From NCBI RefSeq assembly GCF_003334255.1, contig NZ_QOWU01000007.1: 64,000 nucleotides of DNA; one strand, given 5' to 3'. The DNA is from Escherichia coli (GTDB lineage: Bacteria > Pseudomonadota > Gammaproteobacteria > Enterobacterales > Enterobacteriaceae). The notes beneath the pieces are model-generated. The model was not told the origin of the DNA and searched no databases. It worked only from the letters and a program-made list of their open reading frames with translations. Made by a program: the position numbers and the translations under genes. Shown piece by piece: positions 1 through 6,122 of the stretch (the stretch's first letter is position 1; each line of letters begins with the position of its first letter).

Positions 1-60
1 TTCGTCCGGTTTGCTATTGAGTTCCTGCCTGGATACTTACCGCGAAAACAGCACGCCTGA
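1..60 (+). CDS. 3' end of an upstream ORF truncated by the window edge (possibly kdgT, not verified)
   Basis: Frame 1 is open from position 1 to a TGA at 58-60 (FVRFAIEFLPGYLPRKQHA*); too short to identify. Confidence 0.3.
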   Translation, partial: FVRFAIEFLPGYLPRKQHA

Positions 61-110
61 CATAAAATAAATATGGTCTAATGGGGAAATTTCTCGTGGA
101 GAGGGAACAG

Positions 111-785
111 ATGCGATATCCGGTTGATGTATACACAGGCAAGATTCAGGCTTATCCCGAAGGCAAACCCAGCGCAATTGCTAAAATCCAGGTTGATGGT
201 GAGTTGATGCTGACGGAGCTGGGGCTGGAAGGTGACGAGCAGGCGGAGAAAAAGGTTCACGGCGGGCCAGACAGAGCGCTGTGTCATTATCCTCGTGAGC
301 ATTATCTCTACTGGGCGCGGGAATTTCCGGAACAGGCGGAGTTGTTTGTTGCGCCTGCGTTTGGTGAAAACCTCTCAACCGACGGCCTGACGGAAAGTAA
401 TGTTTATATGGGCGATATTTTCCGCTGGGGAGAGGCATTAATTCAGGTCAGCCAGCCGCGCTCGCCTTGCTATAAACTCAATTACCATTTTGATATCAGC
501 GATATAGCGCAGTTGATGCAAAACACAGGTAAGGTGGGGTGGTTGTATAGCGTGATAGCGCCAGGGAAAGTGTCTGCGGACGCGCCGCTGGAGTTGGTTT
601 CCCGTGTCAGCGATGTGACCGTGCAGGAGGCTGCCGCCATCGCATGGCATATGCCGTTTGATGACGATCAATATCACCGTTTACTCTCCGCTGCCGGGTT
701 ATCGAAAAGCTGGACGCGGACGATGCAAAAGCGCCGACTGAGCGGCAAGATCGAAGATTTTTCCCGCCGGTTGTGGGGAAAATAA
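111..785 (+). CDS. yiiM: MOSC-domain protein YiiM (6-N-hydroxylaminopurine resistance)
   Basis: ORF 81..785; internal ATG at 111 preceded by GAGGGAA gives 224 aa starting MRYPVDVYTGK, matching YiiM. Confidence 0.85.
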   Translation: MRYPVDVYTGKIQAYPEGKPSAIAKIQVDGELMLTELGLEGDEQAEKKVHGGPDRALCHYPREHYLYWAREFPEQAELFVAPAFGENLSTDGLTESNVYMGDIFRWGEALIQVSQPRSPCYKLNYHFDISDIAQLMQNTGKVGWLYSVIAPGKVSADAPLELVSRVSDVTVQEAAAIAWHMPFDDDQYHRLLSAAGLSKSWTRTMQKRRLSGKIEDFSRRLWGK

Positions 786-795
786 CCCCCGGAGT

Positions 796-880
796 GTAGG
801 CCTGATAAGACGCTATCAGCGTCGCATCAGGCATCCTGCTCAAATGCCGGATGCGGCGTAAACGCCTTATCCTGCCTGCA
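796..880. repeat. REP/BIME element (two inverted REP palindromes)
   Basis: gtaggcctgataagacgc...gcatcaggc and gccggatgcggcgtaaacgccttatcc motifs between convergent yiiM and cpxA. Confidence 0.8.
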
Positions 881-890
881 AATGCGAAGT

Positions 891-2264
891 TTAACTCCGC
901 TTATACAGCGGCAACCAAATCACCAGCCGTAAACCGCCCAGCGGGCTGTCTTCTGCCTTCACCCAGCCACGATGCTGCTGAATGGCGGTTTCAACAATCG
1001 CCAGCCCCAAACCTGTACCGCCAGATTCACGATCGCGTGCTTCATCGGTACGATAGAACGGACGGAAAATCTGTTCGCGATCTTCCGGGCTAACGCCAGG
1101 ACCATCGTCGTCCACCGTAATGGTGATACCGTCTTTATCTACCGCAAAGCCCACTTCAATCTTCGTATGGGAATAACGCAGAGCATTACGAACAATGTTT
1201 TCCAGCGCACTTTCCAGGGCGTTCGGATTGCCGTACAGCGGCCACGGCCCAGGCGGGAAGTTAACTGTCAACGACTTGCCCATTTGCTCGGCTTCGAACG
1301 CCGCGTTATCCAGCACTTCACTCCACAACTGGTTGGCTTTGATGGTTTCGCTAACCAGCGCGTTTTTTTGCTGATTACGTGACATCACCAACAGATCGTT
1401 GATCATGCTGTCCAGACGTTGCGCTTCGGTTTCAATACGCTCCAGTTCCTTGCTTTCACCGCTACGACGGCGCAGTAACGCCGTACCCAGTTGCAGACGC
1501 GTCAGCGGGGTGCGCAGCTCGTGAGAGATATCAGAAAGCAGACGCTGCTGAGAGGTCATCATGCGCTCCAGCGCGGTGACCATCTGGTTAAAACTGGCAC
1601 CTGCGGCAAGGAATTCCTGTGGCCCCGCTTCCAGTTCCGGGTGCTGGCGTAAGTTTCCCTGGGCAACTTCATCGGCAGCGTTTTTCAGCTTACGCGCCGG
1701 TTTTGCCAGACTCCAGGCCAACCACAACAGCAGCGGCGTACTGACCAACATGGTGACAATCAGCAGTAATAGCGGGCGGTCAAACAGTAAGTTAATGAAA
1801 TCGGATTGAGAACTGCTGGCCGGACGAATCAGATAAAGTTGGTAATTATCTTCGCCATCACGCACGGAGAACGGACCGACCAGTTCCACGCGGCCATACT
1901 TTTTCTTCTGCGGATGATCGGCGTTATCGGCCTGACCAATAAAGTTACGAATGATCTGCATTTCGCTGCGTTCAGCGCCGATCACGCGGCCTTCGGTGGT
2001 CACCAATAACAAACGCTGTCCTGGCGGTGCCCACTTATCAATCGCCCGGAACAGACGCCGCCACCACATTAAATCGTTGGGCGGATCGTTCGCCAGCTCC
2101 GCTTCGACATGCTGCTCAATCATCAGCCCCTGACGCTGTTCGCTATCCAGAAGCTCGGTCATCTGGCGTGAATCGAGCTTGGGTAACATCAAAACCAACA
2201 TCAACACCAGCGCCAGCGTCAGCCAGAAGATGGCGAAGATGCGCGCGGTTAAGCTGCCTATCAT
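891..2264 (-). CDS. cpxA: Envelope-stress sensor histidine kinase CpxA
   Basis: 457-aa ORF, MIGSLTARIFAIFWLTLALVL N-terminus, HisKA/HATPase motifs; 4-bp overlap with cpxR. Confidence 0.95.
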   Translation of the reverse strand: MIGSLTARIFAIFWLTLALVLMLVLMLPKLDSRQMTELLDSEQRQGLMIEQHVEAELANDPPNDLMWWRRLFRAIDKWAPPGQRLLLVTTEGRVIGAERSEMQIIRNFIGQADNADHPQKKKYGRVELVGPFSVRDGEDNYQLYLIRPASSSQSDFINLLFDRPLLLLIVTMLVSTPLLLWLAWSLAKPARKLKNAADEVAQGNLRQHPELEAGPQEFLAAGASFNQMVTALERMMTSQQRLLSDISHELRTPLTRLQLGTALLRRRSGESKELERIETEAQRLDSMINDLLVMSRNQQKNALVSETIKANQLWSEVLDNAAFEAEQMGKSLTVNFPPGPWPLYGNPNALESALENIVRNALRYSHTKIEVGFAVDKDGITITVDDDGPGVSPEDREQIFRPFYRTDEARDRESGGTGLGLAIVETAIQQHRGWVKAEDSPLGGLRLVIWLPLYKRS

Positions 2265-2959
2265 GAAGCAGAAACCATCAGATAGCCGCGACCACGCAAG
2301 GTTTTAAACCACGGGTGACCATCTTTACGATCCGGCAGTTTACGACGCAGGTTGGAAATGTGCATATCAATAGCGCGGTCGAAAGGCGTCAGGCGTTTGC
2401 CCAACACTTCCTGGCTTAAATGTTCACGGGAAACCACCTGACCCAGATGCTGTGCCAGCAAATAGAGCAGGGTAAACTCAGTACCGGTTAACTCCAGCGT
2501 TTGCCCGTCGAAGCTGGCTTCCTGACGGCCTGGATTCAGCACTAAGGCATCAACTTCCAGTGTCGGTGAACCGTTGTCGTTGTTTTGCTGTTGCTCGCTC
2601 CAGTGCGAACGGCGCAGGATCGCGCGAATACGTGCCACCAGCTCACGATCATTAAACGGTTTCGGGAGATAGTCATCTGCGCCCAGCTCAAGGCCGAGAA
2701 CGCGATCAAGTTCACTGCCGCGCGCCGTCAACATAATGACAGGCGTCTGGTGTGTCTGGCGAAGTGCTTTTAATGTGTCGATACCATTTTTCTTCGGCAT
2801 CATTACGTCAAGCAAAAGTAAATCAATGCTGTCGTCCAGAAGATCAAGCGCCTGTTCCCCATCGTGGGCAACAATCACGTTGAAGCCTTCCATCTCGAGC
2901 AGCTCCTTTAATAGGGAAGTCAGCTCTCGGTCATCATCAACTAACAGGATTTTATTCAT
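2261..2959 (-). CDS. cpxR: Response regulator CpxR (OmpR family)
   Basis: 232-aa ORF MNKILLVDDDRELTSLLKELLEMEGF, receiver plus winged-helix. Confidence 0.95.
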   Translation of the reverse strand: MNKILLVDDDRELTSLLKELLEMEGFNVIVAHDGEQALDLLDDSIDLLLLDVMMPKKNGIDTLKALRQTHQTPVIMLTARGSELDRVLGLELGADDYLPKPFNDRELVARIRAILRRSHWSEQQQNNDNGSPTLEVDALVLNPGRQEASFDGQTLELTGTEFTLLYLLAQHLGQVVSREHLSQEVLGKRLTPFDRAIDMHISNLRRKLPDRKDGHPWFKTLRGRGYLMVSAS

Positions 2960-3014
2960 TGTTTAAATACCTCCGAGGCAGAAATTACGTCATCAGACGT
3001 CGCTAATCCATGAC

Positions 3015-3029
3015 TTTACGTTGTTTTAC
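3015..3029. promoter_or_regulatory. CpxR-P box (GTAAA-N5-GTAAA) in the cpxR/cpxP divergent promoter region
   Basis: Plus strand reads TTTAC GTTGT TTTAC, i.e. GTAAA N5 GTAAA on the complement, about 80 bp upstream of cpxP. Confidence 0.7.
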
Positions 3030-3108
3030 ACCCCCTGACGCATGTTTGCAGCCTGAATCGTAAACTCTCTATCGTTGAATCGCGACAGAAAGATTTTGGG
3101 AGCAAATG

Positions 3109-3609
3109 ATGCGCATAGTTACCGCTGCCGTCATGGCCTCAACGCTGGCAGTCAGTTCATTAAGCCACGCTGCTGAAGTCGGTTCAGGCGATAACTGGCA
3201 TCCGGGTGAAGAACTTACGCAGCGCAGTACGCAGAGCCATATGTTCGACGGCATAAGTTTAACCGAACATCAGCGTCAGCAGATGCGAGATCTTATGCAA
3301 CAGGCCCGGCACGAACAGCCTCCTGTTAATGTTAGCGAACTGGAGACAATGCATCGCCTTGTCACCGCAGAAAATTTTGATGAAAACGCTGTGCGCGCAC
3401 AGGCAGAAAAAATGGCGAATGAGCAAATTGCTCGTCAGGTTGAGATGGCAAAAGTCCGCAACCAAATGTATCGCCTGTTAACGCCGGAGCAGCAAGCGGT
3501 TTTAAACGAGAAACATCAACAACGAATGGAGCAGTTGCGTGACGTGACGCAATGGCAAAAAAGTTCATCGTTGAAGCTATTGAGTAGTAGCAACTCACGT
3601 TCCCAGTAG
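3109..3609 (+). CDS. cpxP: Periplasmic Cpx pathway inhibitor/adaptor CpxP
   Basis: ORF 3106..3609; second ATG gives 166 aa [21 protein letters not shown] with signal peptide. Confidence 0.92.
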
Positions 3610-3618
3610 TAAACCCTG

Positions 3619-3676
3619 TTTTCCTTGCCATAGACACCATCCCTGTCTTCCCCCACATGCTGTGGGGGTTTTTTTT
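3619..3676 (+). ncRNA. cpxQ: CpxQ sRNA derived from the cpxP 3' UTR, with intrinsic terminator
   Basis: Immediately after the cpxP stop: UUUUCCUUGCCAUAGACACC...CCCCCACAUGCUGUGGGGG hairpin followed by U8, matching the known CpxQ/cpxP terminator as I recall it. Confidence 0.6.
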
Positions 3677-3757
3677 ATCCTCAATTTGCCTGCTGCTTAA
3701 TGCATTGCAGATGATTTGCTTCCGTTATACTAGCGTCAGTTGATAGCGGGAGTATTT

Positions 3758-4660
3758 ATGAATCAATCTTATGGACGGCTGGTCAGTCGGGCGGCGATTG
3801 CTGCGACGGCGATGGCTTCGCTGCTATTGCTGATTAAAATTTTTGCATGGTGGTATACCGGGTCGGTGAGTATTCTCGCCGCGCTGGTGGATTCGCTGGT
3901 GGATATCGGCGCGTCGTTGACGAATTTATTGGTGGTGCGATATTCCCTGCAACCTGCCGACGATAATCACTCGTTTGGTCACGGTAAAGCTGAGTCCCTC
4001 GCGGCGCTGGCGCAAAGTATGTTTATCTCCGGTTCGGCACTATTCCTGTTTTTGACGGGTATTCAACATCTGATATCTCCAACACCGATGACAGATCCAG
4101 GCGTCGGGGTTATCGTGACAATTGTGGCGCTAATTTGTACGATTATCCTTGTCTCGTTTCAGCGTTGGGTGGTGCGGCGGACGCAAAGCCAGGCGGTGCG
4201 GGCTGATATGCTACATTACCAGTCTGATGTTATGATGAACGGCGCAATTCTGCTGGCGCTGGGGTTGTCCTGGTACGGCTGGCATCGCGCCGATGCTCTG
4301 TTTGCATTGGGAATCGGCATCTATATTTTATATAGCGCGTTACGCATGGGATATGAGGCGGTACAGTCATTACTGGATCGCGCATTGCCTGATGAGGAAC
4401 GGCAAGAAATTATTGATATCGTGACTTCCTGGCCGGGTGTTAGCGGCGCTCACGATCTTCGCACGCGGCAGTCAGGGCCGACCCGCTTTATTCAGATTCA
4501 TTTGGAAATGGAAGACTCTCTGCCTTTGGTTCAGGCACATATGGTGGCGGATCAGGTAGAGCAGGCTATTTTACGGCGTTTTCCGGGATCGGATGTAATT
4601 ATCCATCAGGACCCCTGTTCCGTCGTACCCAGGGAGGGTAAACGGTCTATGCTTTCATAA
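3758..4660 (+). CDS. fieF: Cation-diffusion facilitator (Fe/Zn efflux) FieF/YiiP
   Basis: ORF 3740..4660; internal ATG at 3758 gives 300 aa [25 protein letters not shown]. Confidence 0.92.
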
Positions 4661-4840
4661 TCAGTATAAAAGAGAGCCAGACCCGCATTTTGTGTATAAA
4701 ATACCGCCATTTGGCCTGACCTGAATCAATTCAGCAGGAAGTGATTGTTATACTATTTGCACATTCGTTGGATCACTTCGATGTGCAAGAAGACTTCCGG
4801 CAACAGATTTCATTTTGCATTCCAAAGTTCAGAGGTAGTC

Positions 4841-5803
4841 ATGATTAAGAAAATCGGTGTGTTGACAAGCGGCGGTGATGCGCCAGGCATGAACGCCGCA
4901 ATTCGCGGGGTTGTTCGTTCTGCGCTGACAGAAGGTCTGGAAGTAATGGGTATTTATGACGGCTATCTGGGTCTGTATGAAGACCGTATGGTACAGCTAG
5001 ACCGTTACAGCGTGTCTGACATGATCAACCGTGGCGGTACGTTCCTCGGTTCTGCGCGTTTCCCGGAATTCCGCGACGAGAACATCCGCGCCGTGGCTAT
5101 CGAAAACCTGAAAAAACGTGGTATCGACGCGCTGGTGGTTATCGGCGGTGACGGTTCCTACATGGGTGCAATGCGTCTGACCGAAATGGGCTTCCCGTGC
5201 ATCGGTCTGCCGGGCACTATCGACAACGACATCAAAGGCACTGACTACACTATCGGTTTCTTCACTGCGCTGAGCACCGTTGTAGAAGCGATCGACCGTC
5301 TGCGTGACACCTCTTCTTCTCACCAGCGTATTTCCGTGGTGGAAGTGATGGGCCGTTATTGTGGAGATCTGACGTTGGCTGCGGCCATTGCCGGTGGCTG
5401 TGAATTCGTTGTGGTTCCGGAAGTTGAATTCAGCCGTGAAGACCTGGTAAACGAAATCAAAGCGGGTATCGCGAAAGGTAAAAAACACGCGATCGTGGCG
5501 ATTACCGAACATATGTGTGATGTTGACGAACTGGCGCATTTCATCGAGAAAGAAACCGGTCGTGAAACCCGCGCAACTGTGCTGGGCCACATCCAGCGCG
5601 GTGGTTCTCCGGTGCCTTACGACCGTATTCTGGCTTCCCGTATGGGCGCTTACGCTATCGATCTGCTGCTGGCAGGTTACGGCGGTCGTTGTGTAGGTAT
5701 CCAGAACGAACAGCTGGTTCACCACGACATCATCGACGCTATCGAAAACATGAAGCGTCCGTTCAAAGGTGACTGGCTGGACTGCGCGAAAAAACTGTAT
5801 TAA
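4841..5803 (+). CDS. pfkA: 6-phosphofructokinase I
   Basis: ORF 4745..5803; ATG at 4841 gives 320 aa [25 protein letters not shown]. Confidence 0.97.
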
Positions 5804-5858
5804 TGATTTCGGAAAAAGGCAGATTCCTTTACCCTGAAACCGATGACAGAAGCAAAAA

Positions 5859-5960
5859 TGCCTGATGCGCTTCGCTTATCAGGCCTACATGAATTCTGCA
5901 ATTTATTGAATTTGCAAACTTTTGTAGGCCGGATAAGGCGTTCGCGCCGCATCCGGCATG
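5859..5960. repeat. REP/BIME element pair downstream of pfkA
   Basis: gcctgatgcgcttcgcttatcaggcctaca ... tgtaggccggataaggcgttcgcgccgcatccggcatg. Confidence 0.85.
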
Positions 5961-6122
5961 GACAAAGCGCACTTTGTCAGCAATATGAGGCGGATTTCTT
6001 CCGCCTTTTTAATCCCTCAACATATACCCGCAAGTTATAGCCAATCTTTTTTTATTCTTTAATGTTTGGTTAACCTTCTGGCACGCTTTGCTCATCACAA
6101 CACAACATAAGAGAGTCGGGCG

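Follow-up and report, generated by a model that had tools for sequence, protein, structure and literature searches.

The cpxR-cpxP-fieF region of Escherichia coli: a CpxR~P box and the 3' UTR-derived small RNA CpxQ in a 64-kb window

Introduction

CpxQ is a textbook case of an RNA regulator excised from the 3' UTR of an mRNA, and the promoter of its parental gene, cpxP, is a standard reporter of Cpx envelope stress. The region analyzed here raises the question of how the DNA on either side of one small coding sequence would supply both a regulated promoter and a second, RNA effector. A preliminary description, made from the raw sequence, had placed a CpxR-P recognition motif upstream of cpxP and a CpxQ-like element downstream of it. 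Herein, we examine both assignments in the window, by which we mean the whole stretch of DNA that was analyzed (64 kb), and weigh them against the explanations that compete with them.

Results

Identity of the locus

The genes on which the analysis depends are as follows.

891-2264, minus strand: cpxA, downstream of cpxR (open reading frame list)
2261-2959, minus strand: cpxR, response regulator coding sequence, divergent from cpxP (open reading frame list and RefSeq annotation of the identical MG1655 sequence)
3109-3609, plus strand: cpxP coding sequence, 166 aa, periplasmic Cpx modulator/adaptor (open reading frame list and RefSeq annotation)
3758-4660, plus strand: fieF (open reading frame list)

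A segment of 1,401 bases around cpxP in E. coli K-12 (NC_000913.3, 4105300-4106700) matches the window exactly, starting at window position 2589. When a 901-bp query over the region of interest was compared with complete E. coli genomes, it was present in 5,426 of 5,426, with at least 99% identity in 5,422, and it was 100% identical to several of them, K-12 MG1655 among these. The annotated genes beneath the 901-bp match are cpxR, cpxP, and fieF, the annotated flanking genes are cpxA, cpxR, cpxP, and fieF, and pfkA also lies within positions 1-6000. On sequence identity, the cpxRA-cpxP locus in the window is the E. coli type example itself and not a relative; it is already known and holds no new biology. 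The cpxP reading frame closes with TAG at 3607-3609, which is followed directly by an in-frame TAA (3610-3612).

A tandem CpxR~P box in the cpxR/cpxP divergent region

Three elements were located in the intergenic region.

3015-3029, minus strand: CpxR~P box, tandem direct repeat GTAAA-ACAAC-GTAAA (perfect match to the published consensus GTAAA-N5-GTAAA)
3035-3039, minus strand: degenerate third half-site GTCAG (two-mismatch match at 3025-3039; 98% conserved in 80 species)
3060-3066, plus strand: GTAAA pentamer (3060-3064) overlapping a possible -10 hexamer, TAAACT (3061-3066), read from the sequence

The plus strand at 3015-3029 reads TTTACGTTGTTTTAC and the minus strand reads GTAAAACAACGTAAA, a perfect GTAAA-N5-GTAAA. 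The preliminary description had reported precisely such a motif on the complement of these positions, and direct reading bears this out; neither strand of the 64-kb window holds a second perfect match. Its placement in the cpxR/cpxP divergent region is equally sound, since the box falls inside the 149-bp intergenic region (2960-3108). The start codons of cpxR and cpxP are 55 and 79 nt away, respectively, which puts the box within about 100 bp upstream of a Cpx-regulated promoter. The reading of the motif as a CpxR-P recognition site is upheld by the CpxR~P consensus of De Wulf et al. (2002), which the E. coli box matches perfectly, in the expected location and without any difference, and by an orthologous site in Yersinia pseudotuberculosis. 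There, DNase I footprinting located a GTAAA-N5-GTAAA repeat ∼55 nt upstream of cpxR, and mutagenesis confirmed it. The E. coli box occupies the same position, ∼55 nt upstream of cpxR, and the DNase I-protected Yersinia sequence gtcagggcatgtaaagctga resembles the minus strand of E. coli 3039-3020, GTCAGGGGGTGTAAAACAAC.

A short motif of this kind could also occur by chance, with CpxR acting elsewhere in the intergenic region. Shuffled versions of the window contained a mean of 0.08 perfect matches, and 8 of 100 shuffles held at least one; a single perfect match per 64 kb is thus only mildly unusual by itself. Conservation gives the chance reading some room as well. In the comparative set described below (80 species), the box is 98.8% identical to the window and sits in a near-invariant block of about 85 bp, in which the flanking sequence is as conserved as the box, so that conservation backs the control region as a whole and not the pentamers specifically. 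What makes the match meaningful is its location, because the expectation for a perfect match in the one 149-bp region where it would be predicted is about 0.08 x 149/64000, or roughly 2e-4. Together with the coincidence in position with the Yersinia site and the published CpxR-P sites in PcpxP, this leaves a chance origin scarcely credible, and we read 3015-3029 as the CpxR~P box.

Three CpxR-P sites have been reported in E. coli PcpxP, one of which extends to +5, and the promoter is a sigma-70 promoter. Beyond the De Wulf et al. consensus, we note here an additional in-phase half-site. The minus strand reads GTCAG-GGGGT-GTAAA-ACAAC-GTAAA, where the degenerate GTCAG (3035-3039) keeps a 10-bp phase with the box, and it may be one of the three reported sites. 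The cpxP transcription start has been placed within 44 bp upstream of the cpxP ATG, and a literature search did not yield its exact coordinate. When 2900-3800 was scanned against the sigma-70 consensus, no strong promoter emerged, which leaves the -10 and -35 of PcpxP not fixed; such a result is expected since the promoter is activator dependent. The hexamer TAAACT (3061-3066) is a possible -10 of the cpxP promoter.

CpxQ at the 3' end of cpxP

Downstream of the cpxP stop codon, the following elements were defined.

3613-3622, plus strand: conserved processing-site context ACCCUG/UUUU, with the slash at the cleavage site (conservation resumes at 3613; annotated 5' end U3619)
3619-3676, plus strand: CpxQ sRNA, 58 nt, UUUUCCUUGCCAUAGACACCAUCCCUGUCUUCCCCCACAUGCUGUGGGGGUUUUUUUU (identical to ncRNA cpxQ, b4716, of NC_000913.3)
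3619-3649, plus strand: invariant, seed-bearing 5' part of CpxQ, 31 nt (same in the window and all 80 loci)
3650-3676, plus strand: rho-independent terminator, stem-loop 3650-3668 and U8 tail 3669-3676 (terminator scan and fold)

In NC_000913.3, the ncRNA cpxQ (b4716, "small regulatory RNA CpxQ") is annotated at 4106330-4106387, which corresponds to window positions 3619-3676 with 58 of 58 bases identical. The RNA begins 9 nt past the cpxP stop codon, in the cpxP 3' UTR and on the same strand, and ends with the last T of the terminator T-run. Its length agrees with the published size of E. coli CpxQ (58 nt), and it is identical in sequence and coordinates, with no difference, to the experimentally studied K-12 CpxQ (Chao & Vogel 2016; Grabowicz et al. 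2016). The match to CpxQ that had been proposed from the letters alone is therefore confirmed base for base (100% identity to b4716). The end coordinate given at that stage, 3676, is the exact annotated 3' end of cpxQ, and the 5' end at 3619 is supplied here. In this respect, the locus serves as a positive control, in which a short regulatory motif and a 3' UTR sRNA were correctly named from raw sequence.

Published oligonucleotides are in agreement with both ends of the RNA. A forward cloning primer starts TTTTC..TTGCCATAGACACCATCCC, which agrees with the CpxQ 5' end, and the plasmid with its +1 at the native CpxQ processing site was built with a primer starting TTTTC. The antisense oligo AAAAAAAACCCCCACAGCATG runs as far as the eighth T of the CpxQ tail. 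The published E. coli CpxQ cloning and in vitro transcription primers agree with 3619-3676, although one C is missing from primer CB127 in the version of the text consulted. Window positions 3614-3638 are matched in full by a Salmonella primer, CCCTGTTTTCCTTGCCATAGACACC, which thus runs across the processing site. When the CpxQ sequence was searched for in full-text literature, only a Salmonella yiiP cloning primer matched. Salmonella CpxQ itself, from two Salmonella enterica subspecies, differs from E. coli CpxQ by one terminator-loop base.

The terminator, which is common to the cpxP mRNA and CpxQ, consists of an 8-bp stem with six G-C pairs (3650-3668) followed by T8 (3669-3676), giving a rho-independent terminator with a long U tail. 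Folding of the 58-nt RNA gave -17.4 kcal/mol (z = -2.8 versus shuffles), with a predicted structure of a small hairpin at 3632-3648 and the terminator hairpin at 3650-3668, followed by U8. Two stem pairs of the terminator change on both sides among the loci (A-U/U-A/C-G and C-G/U-A), with pairing in 94% of cells. The stem covariation score was 0.165 as compared to a shuffled mean of 0.055 and was reached by 0 of 500 shuffles, and registers slid along the stem were only 42-59% paired. The small hairpin at 3632-3648 is invariant in all loci, and covariation neither supports nor refutes it. Thus the strong terminator hairpin that the preliminary description had seen at the end of the cpxP 3' UTR is supported by the terminator scan, the fold, and the compensatory stem changes. 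CpxQ is reported to bind Hfq and to be Hfq dependent and, based on this literature, 3650-3676 is presumed to be the Hfq-binding 3' module of CpxQ.

Conservation of CpxQ across Enterobacteriaceae

The comparative loci were gathered via the CpxP protein, and not via the RNA, and comprise 80 Enterobacteriaceae species from roughly 25 genera with CpxP 71-100% identical. The mean identities to the window over these 80 species were:

cpxP coding sequence: 81%
cpxP third codon positions: 69%
whole CpxQ: 96%
CpxQ nt 1-30 (3619-3648): 100%
terminator stem-loop: 89%
spacer downstream of CpxQ: 46%

Among the loci there are 21 distinct CpxQ variants, and the first 31 nt are common to all of them, with the differences confined to the terminator. 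The conserved part includes the 5' seed sequence CCUUGCCA and a second conserved stretch, AUCCCUGUCU. It has been published that no other part of cpxP is as conserved as the CpxQ region, and these results reproduce that observation. Within E. coli, 4,141 complete genomes matched a 105-nt query around CpxQ with 99% identity or more, and 1,281 matched it with 95-99%.

This pattern bears on whether the 3' UTR element is anything other than the intrinsic terminator of cpxP, with no function in trans. A canonical terminator is indeed present, and PGAP-annotated E. coli genomes list no RNA gene at the CpxQ position. However, a terminator requires just a hairpin and a U-tract, and here all 80 species keep the 31 nt preceding the stem unchanged, whereas the stem and the coding sequence vary. 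The curated K-12 record also annotates cpxQ, and the deletion and overexpression phenotypes published for CpxQ, along with its validated targets, have in effect already refuted a terminator without further function. We consider that explanation practically dismissed, and CpxQ remains our reading of the element.

The invariant 31 nt seem to be more than two short seeds require. Conceivably, the block carries a further constraint, either as an Hfq/RNase E recognition surface for processing precision or through the lowering of CpxP synthesis by CpxQ, although we regard this as improbable. CpxQ has been reported to lower CpxP production via cpxP nt 1-63 (Grabowicz 2016). Pairing of CpxQ 3619-3649 with the cpxP 5' UTR/signal-sequence region (3065-3172) was not above background (-13.9 kcal/mol versus a shuffled mean of -13.7 kcal/mol), so that any action of CpxQ on CpxP synthesis would be indirect or independent of pairing.

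Three minor observations were made in the alignment. The double in-frame stop at 3607-3612 (TAG TAA) is the least conserved stretch of the cpxP-CpxQ junction. In the terminator loop (UGC), the C at 3660 is peculiar to E. coli in this sample, and it is A in all 80 other species, including E. albertii and a further Escherichia sp. Finally, the sequence TTCCGTTATACT at 3720-3731, which contains TATACT, is moderately conserved within the otherwise poorly conserved CpxQ-fieF spacer and may supply the -10 element for a fieF promoter that lies beyond the terminator.

Release of CpxQ from the cpxP mRNA

RNase E, with Hfq, is reported to cut the cpxP mRNA near the stop codon and to release CpxQ, whose natural 5' nucleotide is given as U. 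In the 80 species, conservation returns 6 nt upstream of the mature 5' end, past the variable stop-codon region. Judging from the alignment, the conservation at ACCCUG/UUUU is compatible with a conserved processing site. At position -2 relative to the cut there is a U and not a purine; the RNase E motif, RN/WUU, has a purine at -2.

Some 3' UTR sRNAs, such as DapZ and MicL, have internal promoters, and CpxQ might by analogy be a primary transcript, driven by a promoter of its own within the end of cpxP, instead of a processing product. Against this, no sigma-70-like promoter is found anywhere in 2900-3800, including upstream of 3619, and the mature 5' U is poor for initiation, with the plasmid designed to start at the mature 5' end initiating a few nt upstream instead. 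Furthermore, published constructs with an upstream start also give the 58-nt species after processing, and mutation of the RNase E site abolishes CpxQ. A private promoter for CpxQ is accordingly very improbable, and we retain processing from the cpxP mRNA as the source of the RNA.

CpxQ resembles other RNase E-processed 3' UTR sRNAs, SdhX and SroC, in being cut from an mRNA 3' end, in using the parental terminator, and in its Hfq dependence. It differs from both in that its parental mRNA is monocistronic and the sRNA covers nearly the whole 3' UTR.

Complementarity of the conserved seed to CpxQ targets

CpxQ is known to repress nhaB, skp, agp, ydjN, fimA, and cfa by Hfq-dependent pairing. We examined pairing on K-12 target sequences, with a windowed, site-level scan in place of whole-mRNA duplex energies. 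CpxQ nt 1-14 paired best with cfa at -135..-126 (CGGCAAGGGU, -14.1 kcal/mol). In the comparison of duplex energies with shuffled seeds, just 1 in 300 of the latter equalled the pairing of CpxQ with cfa. In the published cfa work, G residues at -143 to -148 lie upstream of the CpxQ site, and the computed site is just downstream of these residues. The same 14 nt paired with nhaB at +306..+315, where the published coding-sequence site is around nt 312, and at -16..-4, and with the skp Shine-Dalgarno region at -17..-5.

The whole-mRNA duplexes of CpxQ nt 1-31 with nhaB and skp were no better than those of shuffled seeds (135 of 300 and 140 of 300, respectively). For these two targets, whole-mRNA energies are uninformative because long targets offer many chance duplexes, and the site-level agreement is the sole informative pairing result. 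The conserved seed is therefore complementary to validated targets, with significance versus shuffles for cfa only.

As a separate observation, CpxQ nt 1-11 can form an 11-bp duplex, including G:U pairs, with E. coli nhaB -16..-4 in the ribosome-binding region (-15.1 kcal/mol), which is the best site in that mRNA; the CpxQ site in the nhaB translation-initiation region has been published as not conserved in E. coli.

A single transcript for two Cpx effectors

Our explanation of the locus runs as follows. Under inner-membrane or periplasmic stress, CpxR~P would bind the tandem GTAAA repeat at 3015-3029 and neighboring degenerate half-sites, and the bound CpxR~P would activate the sigma-70 cpxP promoter. 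The resulting transcript would stop at the intrinsic terminator (3650-3676), and its translation would yield periplasmic CpxP. RNase E, helped by Hfq, would then cleave at ACCCUG/UUUU, 9 nt past the stop codon, and leave a stable, 58-nt, 5'-monophosphate CpxQ (3619-3676), whose invariant 5' region would pair with the nhaB, skp, and cfa mRNAs and repress them. The Cpx response would in this manner draw two effectors, one a protein and the other an RNA, from a single CpxR-dependent transcript.

Locus identity, the motif, the terminator, the deep conservation, and the target complementarity come from this analysis, and CpxR~P binding, RNase E cleavage, Hfq dependence, and target repression come from the literature. 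No result obtained here contradicts the explanation, and for this K-12 locus we hold it, as a whole, to be very nearly certain.

CpxQ in Rfam and in automated annotation

A scan of the whole window at gathering thresholds and a permissive scan of 2800-3900 found no CpxQ family in Rfam 15. Matches to NsiR1 and anti-hemB near CpxQ were rejected as chance look-alikes of the terminator. The one further match is to RF02628 (Hrs1), at 3604-3676 on the minus strand, antisense to cpxP/CpxQ. It covers the full 74-nt model in both sequence and structure (E = 2.5e-6). As it scores 41.4 bits, where the gathering score is 56.4, and lies on the strand opposite CpxQ, it does not place the RNA in the Hrs1 family.

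The Hrs1 consensus opens with AAAAAAA and then a hairpin, which is what a reverse-complemented terminator looks like. In Erwinia amylovora, hrs1 lies between cpxP and fieF, is co-oriented with both, is Hfq dependent, carries a rho-independent terminator, and has been classed as Erwinia specific. It thus shares with CpxQ the cpxP/fieF spacer locus and the orientation; of the CpxQ sequence, only the cores CCUUGCCA and AUCCCUGUCU are kept in Erwinia. Hrs1 appears to be the Erwinia orthologue of CpxQ, with the Rfam model on the wrong strand. The missing CpxQ family and the apparently strand-flipped Hrs1 family are a minor database by-product of this work, and they account for the lack of a CpxQ label in automated annotation based on Rfam or PGAP.

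Other elements in the window

Four further RNA elements in the window scored above their Rfam gathering scores.

19574-19631, minus strand: ClpQY (hslVU) promoter element
24243-24295, plus strand: L31 ribosomal-protein leader
55696-55805, minus strand: OxyS sRNA
60795-60984, plus strand: cobalamin riboswitch

REP-type repeats were also observed. One, at 799-876 on the minus strand (Rfam naRNA4, 78.6 bits), lies between the open reading frame at 81-785 and cpxA, and two others match Rfam ES036, at 5881-5922 on the minus strand (48.2 bits) and at 25275-25316 on the plus strand (39.6 bits).
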